From Dictyostelium discoideum (Eukaryota): a DNA stretch of 64,000 nt. The translations under genes and the position numbers were made by a program. The stretch's first letter is position 1; the number at the start of each line of letters is the position of its first letter. The DNA is taken from contig CM000151.3 of assembly GCA_000004695.1 (NCBI GenBank), positions 4,608,001 through 4,672,000 on the forward strand. The letters are read 5' to 3'. The notes beneath the pieces were generated by a model. The model worked only from the letters and a program-made list of their open reading frames with translations. It did not search any database and was not told the DNA's origin. Positions 10,219 to 31,295 of this stretch are shown piece by piece.

Positions 10219-10249
<31 letters not shown>

Positions 10250-10826
10250 TATATATAAAATAAATAAAAAATAATATATATAAAAGAATAAAAAAAAAAG
10301 TTAAAGGAATAAAAGAGTAAAAAAAAAAAAAAAAAAATTGGGTGATTTGGTTTACAGGTAAAGCAAAAAAAAATAATAAAAAAAATGCGGAATCAATTCT
10401 ATGGTGGGAAATATCAAGCATTTAATATAAAAAAAAAAAAAACTTTACACCATATCCAAAAAAATCTTAAAAAAAATCTTTTACAAACCTTATTTTTTAT
10501 ATTTTTTTTTTTTTTTTATTTCTTTTTTTTTTTTTTTTCCGGCTTGCTATTTTGAACTGTTTTGAAAACATATCATTTTTTTTATAAATAATAAAATAAG
10601 GGGTTATTGTTTAGAAAAAAAAAAAATTATTTCAACCCACCCCATTTTTTTTCTCTTAACAAAACCCCAAGATCTGATTAAAGGTGGGAAAAATCAGGCA
10701 ATGACATCATTAAAATCAATATTTTTCATGTTTAATTTTATTTTTATTTTTTATTTATTTTTGGTTACTTTTTTATTATTATTATTATTTTTATTATTAT
10801 TTTTATTTTTTTTTATTTTTTTTATT

Positions 10827-17297: not shown

Positions 17298-19388
17298 ATG
17301 ATAGCAAGTTATTTTGAAGTAGTCGCAATTAAAGATCATAAACCAATTCATCAATCCCAATTATTATTTAGAAAGGGAGAAAAGATATTAGTTGTAGAGA
17401 CAGCACCAACAGGATGGTGGAAAGGTGAAATTGGTAATAGAAAAGGGTTGTTCCCAGAATCTTACGTTTCACAATCACCAACACCATCAATGATAACATC
17501 ACCAGTTCCAACCTCACCATTGGTTCATACAACAATCACTTCAACACCAAATGTTGCATCACCACAATCTTTAAATATTGAAAATAATAATATTACACTA
17601 TTACCACCTCCACCTCCAGTTATAATTAGTAATGAAGAATCAACATCATCAGCAGCATCATATTCATCTTCATTATCTTCATCCTCTCAACTACAACAAC
17701 AGCCACAAGCACCACAATTAGTTGTACCACCAATTAAACAATTAAATAAAGTTGGATCATCAGTAACATTTAGTGATTCACCATCAGTTATAATTTCATC
17801 TTCAACAGCTACAACAACTAATAATGGTACATTATCACCAACAACTTCTTCACCACACACCGATAGTCCAATTAATAAATCACCACGTTTTAATATTTCA
17901 CCAACTGATATAGCAAATTCAGCACCAAGAATGACAAGCCACACAAGAAAGAATTCAGGTCCTGCAAAATCAATCTCCTCTCAAAATGATAGTAGTGATG
18001 ATAGTGATACTTCTCCAACATTGAAAGGTGTTAATGGTGGTGTTAATGTTGGTGGTGGTATTGGTGGTGAAGGTATTTCATCCACAAGTAAACCAAATAA
18101 ACAATATAGTAGTGCAACTGTAAACATTAAAGATTTAAAACAACATATGGAAAAGCACCAACAAAATTCAACAATGGGTAGAAATGTTAATTCACGTACT
18201 CCATTACATTCAACTGGTAGAGGTATCAGCGTTGGTGATGTAAATACAGAGGTTCCCTATTATATTTGTCGTGCCATTGAAGCACATTCTCAGCAAGGTT
18301 TTGACGAACTAGAATTTCAAGTTGGTGACTTAATTGTAATCTATAATTCAAAAACTGTTGATTCAGATTGGTGGGTTGGTCGTTTTAAAACAACTTATGG
18401 TTTATTACCAAAGAAATGTGTTGAAATTATTAGAGATATTTCTCCAACTTCTGCAACTGCATTATCACCTTCAAAATCATCACCAACTACATCAACAACA
18501 ACAACAACAACGACAACAACTACTAATACCGCTACAACAGCATCTCCACCAATTAAATCAACAATAGCCACACCACCACCACCATTACAAAAACCTATAA
18601 CACCAGCACCACAAACAACTTTTACTCCAGTACCACCACAACCAGCACCATATAAGTTTGATATAAACTCAAATTATAAAAAAGGTATTGCTTTAACAAA
18701 TTATAATAGCCAATTTGCAACTTATCTTTCATTTAAAAAAGGTGATATAATGGTATTAGAATCAAAAGAGGGTGATTTTTGGAAAGCACGTATTGGTGGT
18801 CAAGTTGGTTTAGTTTCTCCAAATTATATTAGAGAACATGATGTACAAGTACATCCACCAACTACAACCTTTACTGCTTCAGTTTATGATAACTCAAATA
18901 ATTCAAATAATTCAAATAGTAATAGTAATAATATAAGTAATACTACAAATAGTAATAATGATAATATTAATACCAATATTAATAATTTAGCACTACCAGT
19001 AAAACCATCACCACCAATATCACCAAGAACAAACAACAACAACAACAATAATAATAGTATTAATAATAATGTAAATAGAAACGAAAATGAAAATACCAAT
19101 ATTAATCATGAACAACAACAACAATCAAAAACAGTAAATATATCTCAAATTAAAAATGATGCTAATAAAAGTAGTGAAATTGATGATGATGGTATAGCTA
19201 GAAAAATTAGGGATTCATTTACTCATTTCCAAACCAGGGAGGAATTACTTGATGCAATTCAAAATCTAGCAATTAAATTTGTAAAACAAACATCAGCTTT
19301 GAAAAAAGAGTTACAGCAAGAACAACAAGAAAAAGCAAATCTTGAGATGGAATTACAAGAAATCAAACAAAGATATAATATAAATTAA
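17298..19388 (+). CDS. Triple SH3-domain adaptor protein with Pro/Thr-rich linkers and C-terminal coiled coil
   Basis: Three SH3 domains are recognisable: residues 5-60 (YFEVVAIKDH...GWWKGEIGNRKGLFPESYV), ~318-375 (YYICRAIEAH...DWWVGRFKTTYGLLPKKCVEII) and ~455-512 (ALTNYNSQ...GDFWKARIGGQVGLVSPNYIRE). The C-terminus is EQQEKANLEMELQEIKQRY. Single exon, ATG at 17298, TAA at 19386. Confidence 0.75.
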   Translation: MIASYFEVVAIKDHKPIHQSQLLFRKGEKILVVETAPTGWWKGEIGNRKGLFPESYVSQSPTPSMITSPVPTSPLVHTTITSTPNVASPQSLNIENNNITLLPPPPPVIISNEESTSSAASYSSSLSSSSQLQQQPQAPQLVVPPIKQLNKVGSSVTFSDSPSVIISSSTATTTNNGTLSPTTSSPHTDSPINKSPRFNISPTDIANSAPRMTSHTRKNSGPAKSISSQNDSSDDSDTSPTLKGVNGGVNVGGGIGGEGISSTSKPNKQYSSATVNIKDLKQHMEKHQQNSTMGRNVNSRTPLHSTGRGISVGDVNTEVPYYICRAIEAHSQQGFDELEFQVGDLIVIYNSKTVDSDWWVGRFKTTYGLLPKKCVEIIRDISPTSATALSPSKSSPTTSTTTTTTTTTTNTATTASPPIKSTIATPPPPLQKPITPAPQTTFTPVPPQPAPYKFDINSNYKKGIALTNYNSQFATYLSFKKGDIMVLESKEGDFWKARIGGQVGLVSPNYIREHDVQVHPPTTTFTASVYDNSNNSNNSNSNSNNISNTTNSNNDNINTNINNLALPVKPSPPISPRTNNNNNNNNSINNNVNRNENENTNINHEQQQQSKTVNISQIKNDANKSSEIDDDGIARKIRDSFTHFQTREELLDAIQNLAIKFVKQTSALKKELQQEQQEKANLEMELQEIKQRYNIN

Positions 19389-19712
19389 TTTCAATGTTAA
19401 AGAAAAAAAAAAAAAAAAAAAAACAATTTATTTATTAAACTCTCAGCTAAATCATATTTTTATAATAAAGAATAATAAACATGTAAATTTATATAAAGTA
19501 CCTTTATTTTAATAATTTTTTTTTAATATTTATTTAATTTAATTTGGAATTATGATCCAACCATTTTTATTTCAACTACCTTCCATCATTAACTGTAAAT
19601 CCTTGAATATCTTCAACACAAACATATCGAATAAAAAAAAAAAAAAAAAAAATTTATCAAGCACAAAAATAAAAAAATGTAAAACAAATAATTTTTTCTA
19701 TTTTTATTTTTA

Positions 19713-23312
<3,600 letters not shown>

Positions 23313-23679: not shown

Positions 23680-25744
23680 TTATTTAGTTGGCAATAGTTT
23701 TACATGTTTGATAAAGAAATGTGTGGGAATAGAGTTTATAAAATTTAAACTATCATTATAGATACAAATAAATTCAAATGAAGGTGGCCATATTAAATCT
23801 GGTAATTCATCACAATTATAACCTGTAAAATAAAATGATTTCAAATTAGGTGGTAAGGCATCTCTATCGATAGTTGAATTGAAAAAATCTGAAATTCGTA
23901 ATAAAGTGAGTGATGATGGTAATACATCTCTTTGAATTGGTTGTTTGTAACTTGGTAATTTTAATACCCCTATGGATGATGGTAGATCTCCAACATTTAA
24001 GGGTTGATTAAAATCATAGATTTTTAATTTTTTAAGATTATTTGGTAAGAGACTATCGTTTAATTCGAATTCATCTGAAACTGTTAAAACTAGTTTTGAA
24101 ATAGTAGGTGGGAATTTTACATCTGTTAAATCTATTTGACTTACATTGAGTTTCAACGATGTTAAATTTTTGAAAAAATCTAAAGAGTGTAAATGTGGGT
24201 TCCGAGTAGTGAAATTCATTATTTTTAGTGTTTGAATTGTTTTGGGTAATATTTGAATATCAGAGAATGCGTTCATTGATAAATTTGTAATTGTTGGTGG
24301 AAAGAGAGCTGCATTATCTTTGTTTCTACCAAGATGTAAAGTTTTAATTGAGATTGGTAATGAGTTTGGTTCAAGTTTATGATTGCCCGACTTGAATATC
24401 AATGATGTAACATTGTGTGGAATCATTCCTTTTTCAATGGTCTGATTAAAAAAAGAATCAAACTCTAATGAAGTTGTACCACCTGGTATAGATGTCGAGT
24501 CTAATTTATTAGTACCTCTTTTAGAATCAAAAGAATAATCAAGAGTTGTTACTGATTTTGGTATTGATCCATATAGAATTATTCCTTGATAATTTGGATC
24601 TAATATCAATGAGGTGAGTGATGGTGGTAATTCATCTCTATGAATTGAATGTTGAAATGATTTTCCAAAAGTTAAAGATTTTAATGTTCTTGGTAGCAAT
24701 GGTATACCATTTGTGTCACTTAATGATTGATTAAACTCATCACTAAAATCAATCGATGTTAGACTATTACCAATCATATTACGAGTTAATTGTTGATCAA
24801 AATCAATCAATGTAATGGACTTACATGTATCTGGTATCCAATGGTCTACTAGTATAATATCTGAACAATCCATCTCTATATTTTCCGCAATTTGTGGCAT
24901 TGGATACCAATTTGAGTAACGTTGGTTTTCATATCCATTTAAATCAAATAATCTGATGTTATTAAAATAATTTCTATATTTATATGTTGAAAAATTATTT
25001 ATCCCTATATCAAAGCTATTATTATGATTATTATATATTCTAAGATGAAATAAAATTTGATCCCTAATAACCATATTTCCCCAAATTTTTTTAAATAATA
25101 TATAATTATTATCAATTGTTTGATTTTTTAGTTGATTTGTTCTTATATTATTATTATTAATATCAGGTTGTGATTTTAAAATTAATTGATTTAAATTATT
25201 ATTATTAATGGTAATATGATGATTTAAATTATTTTTAATGATTATAAGTATTGAACAATCGAATGAAATTCTTTTATTTCTATTGTTAATTGTGTCATTA
25301 TTATTATTATCTGTAATTGAATGAGTATATATAATTTCATTATTAGAATTATTGGTTGTAAATGTGTTTTTTAAATTTTGAATATGATTATTTAGTGTTT
25401 GAAATTGTTGATCATTTAATCCTTTTAAATCATTTAAATGCTTTTTTTCATCTTCTTCTTGTCTATATAAATATGTTTTTATAATTAGTATAATAATAAT
25501 AAAAATAATAAAATAAAAAATATAAAATATCAAAGTGTGTTAACGTATACAATTTTTTTTCTTTTTTATTTTGAAGGTTTTCATTATTGTTTTTATAATT
25601 ATTGATACTATTACAATAATCTTGAAGTTGATTGAATGTAATATTTAAACTATTAATTGATAATATTAATAAACAATTTAAAAGCTCTTCATTGTTTTTA
25701 TTATTATAATTATTAATTAAATAAGAGTAAATTATATTATCCAT
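23680..25744 (-). CDS. FNIP-repeat protein, array copy G1: exon 1 25551..25744, exon 2 23680..25462
   Basis: Exon 1 is a 64-aa conserved N-terminal module (MDNIIYSYLINNYNNKNNEELLNCLLILSINSLNITFNQLQDYCNSINNYKNNNENLQNKKEKK). The intron is 88 nt, phase 2 (tt|GTATAC...tatatag|a). Exon 2 is an ~22-aa FNIP-repeat array (FNQSLSDTNGIPLLPRTLKSLTFGKSFQHSIHRDELPPSLTSL...). The MIFYIFYF... N-terminus of ORF 23680..25533 is intron translation. Confidence 0.65.
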
Positions 25745-26477
25745 TTGACACACAAAAAAAAAAAAAAAAAAGGAAATGTGTTGGTGTTTTTTATTTTAAA
25801 ACAATAAATTTAAATTTTTTTAATTTTTTTTTTTAAATAAATTTTTAAAATTTTTTTGATCCTCTTTTTTTTATCACCCAAGTGCACAGTAAAAAAAAAA
25901 AAACAATAAAAAAATTTCAAAATAAAAAAAAAATAAAAAAAAATAAAAATAAAAAAAAAAAAATATTAATAAATTAAAACACAATATTTGACCCATAACA
26001 TTAAATTTTCAAAAGATAATATTAGAAACAATGCTTTAAAAAATTTCAAAGTTAGATCAAAAAGCAAGGATTGTTTTTGCCATCGATAAGTTACTAGCAA
26101 TTAAGCGATGTGATATTTTCGCCAAAACATACCGAGATCCAGAGTGCTATAAAAGAATCACTGTTTTTTTTCAATTTAAATAGTGAGCCAAACGGTACCA
26201 ACATATCGAATTTTAATTTTTAAAAAAAAAAAAAAAAAAATTTCAAATACTATTAATTCCCATAGTAATTATGATTAAATTAATATAGGATGAAAAAGCC
26301 TTCCATGTCAATTTCAAAGGAAGATGCAAAAAAAAAATAAAAAATAAGGTGATCAATCAATCTTGCCTTTTTAAATAAATAAGAAACCCTTTACAATTTT
26401 TAAATTACTTTTAACTAAAATATCTTTTTATTTTTATTATTTATTATCATTATTTTTTATTTTTTTTTTAATTTTTA

Positions 26478-26620
26478 TAAAAGATCTTTTCTTGTTACAA
26501 TACCAACAACTTCATTCTTTTTATTTACAACAGGTAAATGTTTGTGAACCATTTGCTTGATTTTTTGAACGACATGGTGTAAAAGCTGCACAACAATATA
26601 AAATGGTCGATGTGATTAAT
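26478..26620 (-). other. Isolated CBS-domain-like coding fragment (C-terminal half of a CBS motif), probably a gene remnant
   Basis: Minus-strand ORF between TAA codons translates to ...RPFYIVVQLLHHVVQKIKQMVHKHLPVVNKKNEVVGIVTRKDLL*. This matches the CBS signature h.....hpHpLPVV-(x)n-LVGIIT..DLL. Confidence 0.25.
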
Positions 26621-26744
26621 TAAAATGAAATCTTCTAAAACAAATAAATAAATCTTTTTATTTGCAAAGAATTTACTTCTCAATTGAGACGTGCATTTAA
26701 ATTGACACCGAATAAACCACCTGCAACTGTTGCATTAAAATATT

Positions 26745-27411
26745 TATTTAAAAGTTCGTTTTATTAGTCTTGAAAATTTGATGAGGTTATTATAGTTTTT
26801 TCAAAGGTTTCAAGGGTTTTATCTTTAGATGTTGTTCTAAGTATTGTTTCAATACTCTTACTGAATTTTTTATTTCCCATTAGACGAAAATTTCTGAATT
26901 TTGAATAAACCGATGTATCGATATAGTTGAGCTCTGGTGTAAAGATGGATCTTTCAATAACAAATTGTTTTACCCATTCTCCAAGATGTTAATTGTCTTT
27001 CCAATGGAAGGTTTTAAATGGCCAATGTAAATGTAAAGAATATTTATCGTATTGATAGGAGAAGAGCAATAATGGTCCAATGCTATCGATTTCATCAGAG
27101 ACCTGTGGATGTGTTTTCTTTAGATGGGTTTTCACTTCGTCGATTATAATTCTATCGATAAGATTGTTTTTATAAAGTTGTTTGTTTCTTTTATTTTCTT
27201 CTGCTTTCTCGGGTGGTAACTTAAAATCAATATCTAAATACAAATTACAATTTTCAAATTGTGGAATCAATTCATAATAATGACGAAGATTCAATGGCGT
27301 ATTCATTATACATTTGAAGAGTTTTTCAATACTTGGAGATACTAAAAAAGTACGTTGACCTGTATCTCCAAATTCATATAAAAATATTTCAATAGAGCTG
27401 GCACTATTCAT
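26745..27411 (-). pseudogene. PrimPol-like archaeo-eukaryotic primase (AEP) domain ORF interrupted by an in-frame TAA: probable pseudogene or relic
   Basis: ORF 26989..27411 carries AEP motif I (CNLYLDIDFKLPPEKAEENKRNK; compare PrimPol CKLYFDLEFNKP...) and motif II (YSLHLHWPFKTFHWKDN; compare FSRHLIFQLHDVAFKDN). It ends in TAA. The same frame then continues HLGEWVKQFVIE... with motif III (IDTSVYSKFRNFRLMGNKKFSKS; compare VDLGVYTRNRNFRLYKSSKIGK) to a stop at 26745. The stop sits where PrimPol has DN-I-HVGNF. No UL52-type zinc-finger C-terminal domain follows. Confidence 0.55.
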
Positions 27412-28149
27412 ATAATTAAATGATATTGTTTACTTTGATACATCGGTTTTGTATGGAGTTGTATTTTTACAAACTGCTAATGATTTGAAAATCATAAACA
27501 ATCAAACCTATTCGAATTGACTAACGTTTTACTATCAAATGATTTCAAATATTAATTTCGAAAATGCTGAAGTAACCATATTAAAAGTCATACCACCCAT
27601 AGATAAGTGTATGGAACAAATTAACCAAAGAGGTAGAGCCTTTGAAGTCAGTAGTTTATCCATGTTTCCAAATTAACCGATAAAATTCGATCTCATTGTG
27701 TTAGTCAAGTTTTATCAAGACTTGAAAAACCAAAAAAATGCTGTATCGATACAAAAGCAATGATGACCTGTTCAATGACATTTTCTTTAATGAAAATCCA
27801 AACTCAATTCCCACACCATCCAATATTCCAACTCAATCTCTTCAAAGTTCACACTTAAATCTCAGTTTTTATTACCCATCGAATCAAGAGCAATATTTTA
27901 ATATTCAAGATAAATTGAATTAATAAAACTAAATTCTAAATAATACTATAAAAAAAAAAAAAAAAAAAAAAAAATAAAAATATATTTAAATTAAATAAAA
28001 AAAGAAAAAAAAATGTCTACATTTGCCGATCTTCGTTCTGTTTACGGTGCCTTACTAGGTGGTATGGGTAGTATTGGTGCTTACTTTATTTATTCCAAAC
28101 CAATAGATGGGTTTCATTAAAAGAATATTTTAGAAAAGATTAAGGTTTT

Positions 28150-28742
28150 TATTTTAGAATTAATTGATATAAATTATTATTATTATTAATATTTTTATTA
28201 TTATTAATGGTGATATGATGATTTAAATTATTTTTAATGATTATAAGTATTGAACAATCGAATGCAATTCTTTTATTTCTATTGTCAATTGTGTCATTAT
28301 TGTTATTATCTGTAATTGAATGAGTGTATATAGTTTCATCATTAGAATTATTGGTTATGAATGTATTTTTTAAATTTTGAATATGATTATTTAGTGTTTG
28401 AAATTGTTGATCATTTAATCCTTTTAAATCATTTAAATGGGTTTCTTCCTCTTCTTCTTGTCTATATAAATATGTTTTTATAAATTGGTATAATAATTAT
28501 AAAAATAATAATAAAAATATAAAATAATTAAAGTGCGTTGATGCATACAATTTGTTTTCTTTTTTTTTTTGAAGGTTTTGATAATTGTTTTTATAATTAT
28601 TGATACTATTACAATAATCTTGTACTTGGTTGAATGTAATATTTAAATTATTAATTGATAATATTAATAAACAATTTAAAAGCTCTTCATTATTTTTATT
28701 ATTATAATTATTAATTAAATAAAAGTAAATTATACTATCCAT
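28150..28742 (-). pseudogene. Truncated 5' fragment of an FNIP-array gene (exon 1, intron and first ~110 codons of exon 2)
   Basis: Exon-1 module is MDSIIYFYLINNYNNKNNEELLNCLLILSINNLNITFNQVQDYCNSINNYKNNYQNLQKKKENK (ORF 28497..28742). The fragment is collinear with 25140..25744 of G1. Homology stops abruptly at ~28150. Confidence 0.6.
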
Positions 28743-29235
28743 TTGATAGCCAAATTAATTTTATCAAATAAAAAAGAAAAAAAAATGGTACTTTTTTTTT
28801 AATTTTGGTATTTAACTTTATTTTTTTATTATCAACATTAAATACTTTTTCTTAAAATAATTAATTATCAAAAAAAATGCGCCCATTCCCTTTTTTTAAA
28901 TTTTTTTTATTAACCTAGATATTTTTATTTTGATAAATTTTATGATAAAAAAAAAAACAAAAAAAAAAAAAAATCTAAAAAAATCACTGGTTGGTAAAAG
29001 CTTTTTTTTTAAAAAAAAATAGTTTTTCGTGATTTTGGCAAAATTTCATTTTTATATGAACATGTAAAAGATCGGCCAACATTAAAAAAAAAAAATATAT
29101 TTTTTTTTTTTTTTTAAATCAGACTGTTTTTTAGAGAGTTTTATTTAAAAACCACAATATACCACTTGGGATCACAAAAAATAAAAAAAAAATAAAAAAA
29201 ATTAAAACATTTGCATTAAAAAATTTATTTAAAAA

Positions 29236-31295
29236 TTAATAATTTAATTTCCCACGTTTTAATAGTTTTGTATGTTTGATAAAGAAATCTGTGGGAATAG
29301 AGTTTATAAAATTTAAACTATCATTGTAGATATAAACAAATTCGAATGAAGGTGGCCATATTAAATCTGGTAATTCATCACAATTATAACCTGTAAAATA
29401 AAATGATTTCAAATTAGGTGGTAAGGCATCTCTATCGATAGTTGAATCGAAAAAATCAGAAATTCGTAATAAAGTGAGTGATGATGGTAATACATCTTTT
29501 TGAATTGGTTGTTTGTAACTTGGTAATTTTAATACCCCTATAGATGATGGTAGATCTCCAACATTTAAGGGTTGATTAAAACCATAGATTTTTAATTTTT
29601 TAAGATTATTTGGTAAGAGACTATCGTTTAATTCGAATTCATCTGAAACTGTTAAAACTAGTTTTGAAATAGTAGGCGGGAATTTTACATCTGTTAAATC
29701 TATTTGACTTACATTGAGTTTCAACGAAGTTAAATTTTTGAAAAAATATAAAGAGTGTAAATGTGGGTGGGAACGAGTAGTGAAATCCATTATTTTTAGT
29801 GTTTGAATTGTTTTGGGCAATAGAAACACTTCAAGGCATTCATGTATTGATAAATTTGTAATTGTTGGTGGTAATTGAGCTGAATAGTCTTTGTTTCTAC
29901 CAAGATGTAAAGTTTTAATTGAGATTGGTAATGAATCTGGTTCAAGTTTATGATTGCCCGAACCGAATTTCAATGATGTAACATTGTTTGAAATCACTCC
30001 TTTTTCAATGGTCTGATTGAAAAAATAATCAAACTCTAAAGATGTTGTGCCACCTGGTACCGATGTTGAGTCAAATTTACATGTACCATCTTTAGAATCA
30101 AAATAACAATGAAGAGTTGTTACTGACTTTGGTATTGATCCATATAGAATTACTCCTTGATATTTTGGATCCAATAATAATGATGTAAGTGATGGTGGTA
30201 TTTCGTCTCTATGAATTGAATGTTGAAATAGTTTTCCAAAAGTTAAAGATTTTAATGTTCTTGGTAACCATGGTATACCATTTGTATCACTTAAAGATTG
30301 ATTAAATTCATTACCAAAATCAATAGATGTTAGACTATTACCAATGATATTACGGGTTAATTGTTGATCAAAATCTATAAATGTAATGGATTTACATGTA
30401 TCTGGTATCCAGTGTTCTCCAAGTATAATATCTGAACATCTCATCTCTATATTTTCAACAATTTGTGGCATTGGATAACAATTTGAGTTACGTTGGTTTT
30501 TATAGCCATCAGAATCCAATAACTTGACATTATTAAAATAATTTCTATATTTATATGTTGAAATGTTATTTCTCCTTATATCAAAGCTATGATTATGATT
30601 ATTATATATTCTAAGATGAAATAAAATTTGATCCCTAATAATCATATTTCCCCAAAACTTTTTAAATAATATATAATTATTATCAATTGTTTGATTTATT
30701 TGTTGATTTGTTTTAATTTTATTATTAATATCAGATTGTGATTTTAAAATTAATTGATTTATATTATTATTATTAGTGAGATGATTTAAATTATTTTTAA
30801 TGATTATAAGTATTGAACAATCGAATGAAATTCTTTTATTTCTATTGTTAATTGTGTCATTATTATTATTATCTGTAATTGAATGAGTATATATAATTTC
30901 ATTATTAGAATTATTGGTTGTTAATATATTTTTTAAATTTTGAATTTGATTATTTAGTGTTTGAAATTGTTTGTCATTTAATCCTTTTAAATCATTTAAA
31001 TGCTTTTTTTCCTCTTCTTGTCTAAAAATGTTTATAAATTAGTATAATAATATAATAATAAAATATAAAATATAAAATAATCAAAGTGTGTTAATGCATA
31101 CAATTTTTTTATTTTTTTTATTTGAAGGTTTTGATTATTGTTTTTGTAATTATTGATACTATTACAATAATCTTGAAGTTCATTGAATGTAATATTTAAA
31201 TTATTAATTGATAATATTAATAAACAATTTAAAAACTCTTCATTATTTCTATTGTTATAATTATTAATTAAATAAGAGTAAATTATATTATCCAT
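29236..31295 (-). CDS. FNIP-repeat protein, array copy G3: exon 1 31102..31295, exon 2 29236..31021
   Basis: Exon 1 is MDNIIYSYLINNYNNRNNEEFLNCLLILSINNLNITFNELQDYCNSINNYKNNNQNLQIKKIKK. The intron is 80 nt, phase 2 (tt|GTATGC...tttttag|a). Exon 2 is open from the acceptor through stop 29236 (RQEEEKKHLNDLKGLNDKQFQTL...MIIRDQILFHL...FNQSLSD... FNIP repeats). The 3' ~500 nt are nearly identical to G1. Confidence 0.6.

Follow-up and report, generated by a model that had tools for sequence, protein, structure and literature searches.

In this study, we analyzed a stretch of 64,000 nucleotides (nts) of the Dictyostelium discoideum genome (hereafter the window; assembly GCA_000004695.1, contig CM000151.3, positions 4,608,001 to 4,672,000 of the forward strand), which was traced by exact-sequence look-up to chromosome 2 of D. 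discoideum AX4. Our subject is the remnant of a gene of the PrimPol type, belonging to the archaeo-eukaryotic primase (AEP) superfamily, which occupies window 26767-27411 on the minus strand, retains all three catalytic motifs and is broken by one in-frame TAA. It lies in a patch that is unique within the window (25772-28142) and is surrounded by an array of FNIP-repeat genes. An earlier reading of the bare letters (the original prediction) had placed the bounds of this patch close by, at 25760..28150. The features on which the analysis is built are:

26992-27411, minus strand: N-terminal piece of the PrimPol remnant (140 codons), with motif I LYLDIDF and motif II YSLHLHW
26989-26991, minus strand: in-frame TAA, derived from GAA (Glu) by a G>T change
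26767-26988, minus strand: C-terminal piece of the PrimPol remnant (74 codons), with AEP motif III YIDTSVYSKFRNFRL
27420-27422: deletion junction, at which ~645 bp of the intact copies are gone
27420-27923, plus strand: remnant of a deoxynucleoside kinase (dNK) gene, adjoining the PrimPol remnant
27998-28117, plus strand: remnant of a small open reading frame (ORF; MSTFADLRS...), located downstream of dNK in intact elements and recognized by tblastn and alignment

The minus-strand translation of 26740-27411 begins with MNSASS, reads FHWKDN-stop-HLGEWVKQF around the TAA and ends with SSNFQD and two stops. Its N-terminal 140-aa ORF has been annotated in AX4 as hypothetical protein DDB_G0274951 (Q86HU0; exact match, XP_644207.1). 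When read through the stop, the protein matched human PrimPol (PDB 5l2x/7jk1) with E = 1.6e-9 by HMMER, in an alignment that runs unbroken across the stop (KDNxHLGEW against KDNIHVGNF) and spans all three motif pairs, i.e., motifs I (DxD/E), II (SxH) and III (D...RxxR). The Pfam family AEP_C962R was also matched with 24.7 bits (cutoff 23). Thus, the alignment of three AEP motifs with animal PrimPol, which had been proposed from the letters, was supported by the profile search suggested as its check. A C-terminal UL52-type C-H-C-C zinc finger, already reported as missing from the ORF, could not be found in any frame after the remnant. Judged by sequence, the family is assigned to PrimPol and the AX4 copy is a truncated member of it, because the finger is kept invariant in three intact relatives (P0030, P0031 and P0003). 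The 140-aa ORF was the query of the homologue searches.

TAA is an ordinary stop codon, and a single one does break the frame as originally described. The 90% cluster containing the AX4 140-aa ORF also holds longer proteins of 'D. cf. discoideum' strains, and the intact 354-aa protein P0003 in this cluster has WKDNEHLGEW at the stop position. In a four-way DNA alignment, the site reads GACAATTAACAT in AX4 and ACTFIT and GACAATGAACAT in ACTFIY and D. dimigraforme; the ancestral residue is therefore the Glu (GAA) of the intact relatives, and not the Ile of PrimPol (DN-I-HVG) with which the original prediction had aligned the stop. Here, ACTFIT denotes another D. discoideum strain (GCA_054883475.1), whose 20.7-kb locus (L001) is 99.7% identical to the window and has the same TAA, and the stop is also carried by a Logan contig (L009). 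Since it is shared by this independent assembly and the Logan contig while the intact relatives have GAA, the TAA is a genuine G>T change of a Glu codon. That it might be an assembly or sequencing error in an otherwise intact gene is vanishingly unlikely: the same base occurs in the independent assembly of another strain and in the Logan read assembly, no zinc finger follows it, and even without the TAA the start and the last 156 codons would be missing. An intron over the TAA was also considered and ruled out, as the alignments to human PrimPol and to the intact copies are colinear and leave no room for one; one ACTFIT gene model (P0034) splices around the TAA.

BLASTN against an intact copy in D. 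cf. discoideum ACTFIY (locus L003) gave two abutting matches in the AX4 window. Window 26770-27422, the PrimPol part, corresponds to L003 10068-10729 with 96.5% identity, the same DNA identity as that of the N-terminal piece to the intact ACTFIY copy, and window 27420-28079, comprising the dNK gene and its downstream region, corresponds to L003 9422-8717 with 87.5% identity. The deletion junction between them was confirmed by the four-way alignment, and the ~645 bp deleted here comprise, in the intact L003, the 5' end of each divergent gene and, between the two, the promoter region. Besides the TAA, the PrimPol remnant has a 9-bp in-frame deletion, and its homology stops at codon ~243 (~26770), with 468 nts (156 codons) gone, including the zinc finger. 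An uninterrupted ORF with native start, stop and promoter is thus not present at the AX4 locus.

The neighbouring kinase gene, whose intact homologue matches Pfam dNK with 44 bits, has fared no better. Its remnant lacks ~297 nts of 5' sequence, including the P-loop, and is further damaged by a TGT>TGA nonsense change and by two frameshifting deletions of 7 bp each. This remnant (plus strand, 27420-27923) had been missed by the original prediction, which gave a CBS-domain scrap and an FNIP gene as the further content of the patch. A second annotated gene, DDB_G0274415 (hypothetical protein of 61 aa, 27738-27923, plus strand), is the C-terminal tail of the kinase remnant and matches the last ~60 residues of the intact 263-aa element dNK. 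The small-ORF remnant has a 15-bp deletion, and its homology stops at ~28105; no further element genes were found in the AX4 window. Both DDB_G0274951 and DDB_G0274415 are ORF calls on pseudogene debris and should be reclassified as such.

It might be argued that the host has kept the 140-aa ORF, or the 215-aa read-through product, as a working minimal primase or a regulatory protein, since an ATG is present, the ORF is identical in two D. discoideum assemblies, and dN/dS (the ratio of non-synonymous to synonymous substitution rates) against the intact copy is only 0.14. However, this low ratio comes from 13 substitutions only (8 synonymous and 5 non-synonymous), and divergence preceding inactivation accounts for it; the small number of changes also indicates that inactivation of PrimPol was comparatively recent. 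In addition, motif III and the zinc finger are both missing from the 140-aa product, its promoter and native start have been lost by deletion, and the adjoining dNK is full of frameshifts, as neutral decay of the whole fragment predicts. A minimal primase was among the options of the original prediction; given that the intact relatives carry a UL52-type zinc finger, we find it barely credible. The option of a nonsense-mutated pseudogene is borne out by lesions that could be mapped base by base against the intact copies.

The intact PrimPol P0030 (398 aa) has an AEP catalytic domain followed by a UL52-type C-H-C-C zinc finger and matches human PrimPol with E = 1.5e-12, the N-terminal helix being included in the match. 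It was aligned with full-length proteins named PrimPol/CCDC111 homologues in their sources and with chytrid and metagenomic relatives. Catalytic residues S154, H156, D194, R202 and R205 are invariant in this alignment, and so are residues C336, R341, H343, N346, C363 and C368 of the finger, which form the UL52-type pattern C-x6-H-x19-C-x4-C; the finger is present and invariant in P0030, P0031 and P0003. At a common database size, P0030 scored 110 bits against a 446-aa protein (P0009), 68 bits against an ENA metagenome protein (P0018), 58 bits against a EukProt protein (P0017), 54 bits against a chytrid protein (P0011) and 48 bits against the Picochlorum CCDC111 homologue (P0029), and it had no match to the fused D5-type proteins of two IMG/VR contigs. 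Because PrimPol-type relatives are matched and the fused D5-type proteins are not, these scores place P0030 in the PrimPol family proper. The dN/dS values between the ACTFIY and D. dimigraforme PrimPol copies (0.18-0.23) indicate purifying selection on the gene in the element. A structure predicted for the intact PrimPol from near-identical sequences only had a pLDDT of 39.

With eukaryotic PrimPol (CCDC111; herpes-pox primase family of the AEP superfamily), the intact Dictyostelium copies share the stand-alone architecture of N-terminal helix, AEP motifs I-III and UL52-type finger, as well as the R-x-H-K-S-N signature of the finger. They differ in being much shorter (354-398 aa), in lacking an insert of ~80 residues located between motifs II and III of the human enzyme, and in having DxD rather than DxE as motif I. 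Moreover, eukaryotic PrimPol is a single host gene, whereas the intact Dictyostelium copies reside on a multi-copy, virus-like element.

As a separate observation, the D. dimigraforme PrimPol copy in locus L004 (~10220-10260) has lost the surroundings of motif I through a deletion of 34 bp (columns 273-306 of alignment A1), and the gene model P0031 splices around it. This copy is probably also a pseudogene, although its neighbours look intact.

The dNK-PrimPol pair is intact and multi-copy in D. cf. discoideum (ACTFIY and ACTFIZ) and D. dimigraforme, so that the search in related dictyostelids advised at the outset was answered positively. Homologues of the intact PrimPol were restricted to assemblies of group-4 Dictyostelium. 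The cluster of P0030 comprises 14 member sequences, at least five PrimPol gene models are present in ACTFIY, and two ACTFIY copies of the element located 586 kb apart are 99.7% identical over 15 kb. dNK (minus strand), PrimPol (plus strand) and a YqaJ exonuclease (plus strand) occur together in seven loci (L002-L006, L008 and L014), PrimPol and dNK being divergently transcribed. The recurring block also includes two large unannotated genes, a GRF zinc-ribbon protein and a DUF5906/D5-like superfamily 3 (SF3) helicase. The YqaJ nuclease, of the lambda-exonuclease type, matches Pfam YqaJ with 128 bits, and the SF3 helicase matches DUF5906/VapE (D5-like) with 57 bits. The YqaJ family belongs to the PD-(D/E)XK superfamily. 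Helicase and nuclease are thus present, and Pfam scans of the larger element ORFs found no DNA or RNA polymerase, rve integrase or protease, not all small ORFs having been scanned.

Genes for packaging and capsid formation were also recognized in the same unit. An A32-type (FtsK-HerA) packaging ATPase matches Pfam Pox_A32 with 30.5 bits (cutoff 22.8, E = 3.3e-7) and is 31% identical to the ATPase of an IMG/VR contig (L010). A VLTF3-like protein of 470 aa passes Pfam Pox_VLTF3 marginally, with 25.0 bits exactly at the cutoff of 25 (E = 1.7e-5), and its gene stands beside the capsid gene in two copies (L012 and L013). The capsid candidate (400-414 aa) matches Pfam Capsid_N, the N-terminal domain of the major capsid protein of nucleocytoplasmic large DNA viruses (NCLDVs), with E = 3.5e-5 and 23.9 bits against a cutoff of 24. 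The top PDB match of its profile was PBCV-1 MCPv3, over the C-terminal motif (E = 0.27, not significant alone), which falls on the other half of the candidate than the Pfam match. By these matches it is probably an NCLDV-type major capsid protein. In L006, and also in D. dimigraforme (L007 together with L004), capsid gene and PrimPol are physically linked. In scans of viral contigs, the 140-aa ORF and the capsid candidate matched nothing, and the PrimPol alignment gave two weak loci.

These results lead us to conclude, with high confidence, that an integrated DNA-virus-like element has left a dead fragment of 1.3 kb at window 26770-28105, which is neither a host PrimPol nor a working minimal primase. 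A mobile or viral relic had been one of the options of the original prediction, and it is supported by the location of the dNK-PrimPol pair of the intact relatives in a virus-like element. Iyer et al. were reportedly the first, in 2005, to name a Dictyostelium PrimPol. The view that the AX4 gene is simply a host PrimPol orthologue inactivated in D. discoideum would accord with a review of PrimPol in which Dictyostelium is listed among PrimPol-bearing protists (PMC5295015), with membership in the stand-alone PrimPol/CCDC111 family (scores of 48-54 bits against proteins of chytrids and green algae and of 50.5 bits against human PrimPol), and with the finding of no other Dictyostelium PrimPol beyond this family in the searches made, which were not exhaustive. 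A host orthologue is nevertheless hard to reconcile with the multiple copies in the relatives (at least five ACTFIY gene models, a 14-member cluster and near-identical copies in different places). PrimPol there is always accompanied by dNK and YqaJ and linked to capsid, ATPase, helicase and VLTF3 genes; the intact copies are not syntenic with the AX4 locus, and the AX4 fragment itself keeps the dNK remnant in the element arrangement. We give this view only a slim chance.

In the D. discoideum lineage, a copy of the element would have landed in, or been left in, the FNIP array and then decayed. The steps of decay that could be documented are the ~645-bp deletion of both gene starts and the promoter, the GAA to TAA change, the loss of the 3' third of PrimPol with the finger, and the nonsense change and two frameshifts in the kinase gene; the rest of the element would have been lost by larger deletions.

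Related remains were found elsewhere. The Logan contig L009 (SRR24091728_469, 1068 bp) corresponds at nts 169-1068 to window 27663..26764 with 99.4% identity and has the same TAA, 9-bp deletion and promoter deletion as the AX4 relic. Its nts 1-168, however, are the 5' part of the '466-aa' gene of the element (98% to L006 6506-6671), which is normally the gene upstream of dNK. We read L009 as a differently deleted derivative of the relic, and its structure speaks for a formerly larger insertion that deletions have been wearing down. AX4 itself has at least one more relic, DDB_G0277467 (P0042), located outside the window on the same 8.48-Mb chromosome-2 record. With the C-terminal half of the capsid candidate, this 314-aa model shares 85% identity; it is fused to a piece of the 366-aa gene located past VLTF3 in intact copies, a fusion that implies an internal deletion.

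Several points weigh against the interpretation as a fragment of a viral element. The nearest relatives of the intact PrimPol outside Dictyostelium are stand-alone, cellular-type PrimPols and not fused D5-type viral proteins, which would also fit a host gene captured by the element or lying beside it. None of the fetched element loci matches the left ~1 kb of the patch, in which the CBS scrap lies. For the element itself, neither an integrase nor terminal inverted repeats or target-site duplications could be found, and its lack of a polymerase refers to the larger ORFs, as scanned with Pfam. By sequence, the capsid candidate is a borderline case, and a structural model built from near-identical sequences (pLDDT 36) does not demonstrate the double jelly-roll fold. 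It is from gene content, and from nothing else, that the element would be called a virus, and any mechanism for its replication would derive from homology and not from biochemistry.

Further examination of the element copies revealed a unit size of ~32-40 kb. In D. dimigraforme, a 2,107-bp direct repeat (97.8% identical) flanks a unit of 32.2 kb, measured from start to start:

L007 6685-8781 and L004 14476-16577: direct repeat of D. dimigraforme, containing a whole 457-aa gene

Such a repeat could have arisen if a circular or terminally redundant genome integrated; a partial tandem copy would account for it as well. Since the D. dimigraforme copy lacks ~8.7 kb of the ACTFIY copies and the tandem ACTFIY copies are spaced by 39.7 kb, the full form of the element is probably ~40 kb. 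Several element copies are interrupted by long terminal repeat (LTR) retrotransposons and Harbinger-type transposons, and the sole integrase and reverse transcriptase matches come from LTR retrotransposons inserted nearby, not from the element.

Genomes of similar size are known from mriyaviruses (proposed class Mriyaviricetes, with Yaraviridae and 'Gamadviridae'), which are small relatives of giant viruses of 35-45 kb, some with direct terminal repeats (PMC11253617). They have been described as encoding an NCLDV-type major capsid protein, A32 ATPase, VLTF2/VLTF3, a RuvC-like resolvase, a PDDEXK nuclease, SF3 or superfamily 2 helicases and a short HUH endonuclease conserved in all of them, and as having neither a DNA polymerase nor RNA polymerase subunits (PMC11253617). 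By gene set and size, this description is the best match for the Dictyostelium element (~32-40 kb), which shares the NCLDV-type capsid candidate, A32 ATPase, VLTF3, SF3 helicase, PD-(D/E)XK-type nuclease and direct repeats, with no polymerase detected; the sole cultured yaravirus also infects an amoeba. The two differ in that RuvC-like and HUH-like proteins are represented in the Dictyostelium element only by motifs in two short ORFs, and dNK is an addition. Mriyaviruses mostly have a degraded AEP fused to the helicase, whereas the Dictyostelium element has a separate, intact and apparently active PrimPol with a finger. The Dictyostelium copies are chromosomal, whereas the word 'integrated' is absent from the text of PMC11253617. 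The likeness is one of published description and gene content.

Endogenous polinton-like viruses (PLVs) and virophages of protists are likewise integrated in multiple copies, span tens of kb and carry genes for capsid and packaging as well as primase-helicase replication modules; many of their copies are partly degraded (PMC11702301). The parent element might accordingly be a PLV, a virophage-type virus (Preplasmiviricota) or a capsid-bearing giant transposon instead of a small giant-virus relative. A size of 32-40 kb, integration, multiple copies and an SF3-helicase replication module are typical of PLVs and endogenous virophages (PMC12220804, PMC11702301). In addition, the nearest free viral relative found for the replication and packaging genes, a 15-kb viral contig (L010, IMGVR_UViG_3300010370_003303), has PLV-like content, i.e., a fused AEP-D5 primase-helicase (788 aa), an A32 ATPase, a RING-finger protein and a D12 adenine methyltransferase. 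On the other hand, the Dictyostelium element has a VLTF3-like gene at the Pfam cutoff, and VLTF2/VLTF3 homologues have not been detected outside Nucleocytoviricota according to the mriyavirus paper (PMC11253617). Its capsid candidate matches the NCLDV type only, its primase is split from the helicase, and no tyrosine recombinase was detected. The Polinton/Maverick markers, namely a protein-primed family B polymerase, an rve integrase and an adenain-type protease, were not found by Pfam scans of the element ORFs. We therefore regard the PLV or virophage assignment as unlikely but well short of negligible. With the D5 primase-helicase of poxviruses and other NCLDVs, the element shares the pairing of an AEP primase with a DUF5906/D5-type SF3 helicase. 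In Dictyostelium, however, the two genes are separate (~7 kb apart) and the AEP is of the PrimPol/UL52-zinc-finger type, whereas L010 has the fused form.

In a live element, the helicase would unwind the viral genome, PrimPol would lay primers and perhaps short DNA stretches, dNK would raise the supply of deoxynucleoside triphosphates, and the nuclease would process recombination or replication intermediates. Elongation would be left to a host polymerase, because no polymerase was detected in the element, and the A32 ATPase would package the genomes into capsids.

Putting these data together, we tentatively propose, at slightly less than even confidence, that the parent element belongs to a so far undescribed lineage of small DNA viruses that have no polymerase and are relatives of Nucleocytoviricota (mriyavirus-like); these would integrate in Dictyostelium chromosomes and still be intact, and possibly active, in wild relatives of the laboratory strain. 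In the literature, no paper was found on the AX4 locus, on the D. cf. discoideum and D. dimigraforme assemblies or on a natural Dictyostelium virus, and Dictyostelium is called only a 'potential' giant-virus host in one paper. If the proposal is true, it would be the first evidence of a natural dictyostelid virus, and of a virus with a stand-alone, cellular-type PrimPol, which bears on the old proposal of PrimPol exchange between eukaryotes and large DNA viruses. The combination of giant-virus hallmarks (A32, VLTF3, NCLDV-type capsid signal and D5-like helicase) with a chromosomal location, an intact stand-alone PrimPol and no polymerase would broaden the range of small giant-virus relatives and of their modes of replication. 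Should any copy be inducible, a tractable virus-host system would become available for Dictyostelium, a major model organism. The 'Dictyostelium PrimPol orthologue' of the literature may then be a viral relic, and D. discoideum may have no functional PrimPol; caution is needed here, and the presence of PrimPol in Dictyostelium should not be scored from the AX4 locus. Taken alone, this locus is an ordinary pseudogene, and it is the parent element that is the result of interest.

Some additional observations were made around and within the element copies. A gene for a PIF/Harbinger-type DDE transposase (DDE_Tnp_4; ...LADQGY...) is located beside copies at L006 2908-4390, L005 12163-13645 and L007 4847-7023, and LTR retrotransposons (RVT_1, RNaseH, Integrase_H2C2) break up copies in L005, L012 and L014. 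Imperfect tandem-repeat arrays (~70-89% identity between offsets) lie between element genes at L013 15336-16414 and L007 13890-14721. Two short ORFs on the minus strand of L007 carry motifs of known enzymes: that at 17982-18542 (187 aa) has the HUH endonuclease-like motifs FHLTINT, HSHTLIE and YIKK, and that at 19407-19976 (190 aa), which starts with IIGIDPGIINFA, is RuvC/A22 resolvase-like. Both resemblances are at the motif level only, with no Pfam, PHROG or PDB sequence support, and VLTF2 was not found. A 463-aa protein encoded at L013 18603-19994 (minus strand) consists of repeated 'G(I/V)xF(S/T)xxG(I/V)HL'-like units with a beta-rich C-terminal end; it has no library match and is possibly a spike or fibre protein.

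The surroundings of the AX4 relic contain the following features:

25772-26769: left remainder of the unique patch, including the CBS scrap
26478-26615, minus strand: CBS-domain scrap (Pfam CBS, E = 4.3e-8)
28143-28805, minus strand: truncated FNIP gene, consisting of only the first ~123 codons and the upstream region, 90% identical to 25165-25797
23680-25533, minus strand: intact flanking FNIP-repeat gene (Pfam FNIP)
29236-30645, minus strand: second intact FNIP-repeat gene (Pfam FNIP)

The patch is less AT-biased than spacer, as had been noticed at first sight: GC content is 0.27-0.30 across 26600-27800 and 0.14-0.16 in nearby spacer, while the flanking FNIP coding regions have 0.28-0.30, so that the patch is at the level of coding sequence. 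The CBS-domain scrap reported within it was recovered by Pfam and matched only generic CBS proteins in PDB; the region 26478-26734 (minus strand) ends in a stop, and a neighbouring frame may hold more CBS-like sequence. The truncated FNIP gene had also been assigned to the patch; the gene is real, but it lies just outside, directly to the right. Around the AX4 relic, a search for terminal repeats or target-site duplications returned only A/T low-complexity matches.

The two intact flanking genes match Pfam FNIP with E-values of 2e-45 and 1.6e-44. The segment 28143-28805 copies the start of the neighbouring FNIP gene; as only this start and the upstream region are present, the patch occupies the place of an FNIP gene body. 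The suggestion that the FNIP array itself belongs to a viral block was not upheld, since no FNIP genes occur in the fetched element loci of ACTFIY or D. dimigraforme (L002-L008 and L012-L014) and the fragment replaces an FNIP gene body in a host array. The intact ACTFIY copy P0003 has no FNIP genes around it, by which synteny with the AX4 locus was ruled out. The FNIP genes at 16761-40074 form a tandem array of paralogous units with 70-91% DNA identity, and the whole array is 99.7% conserved between AX4 and strain ACTFIT.

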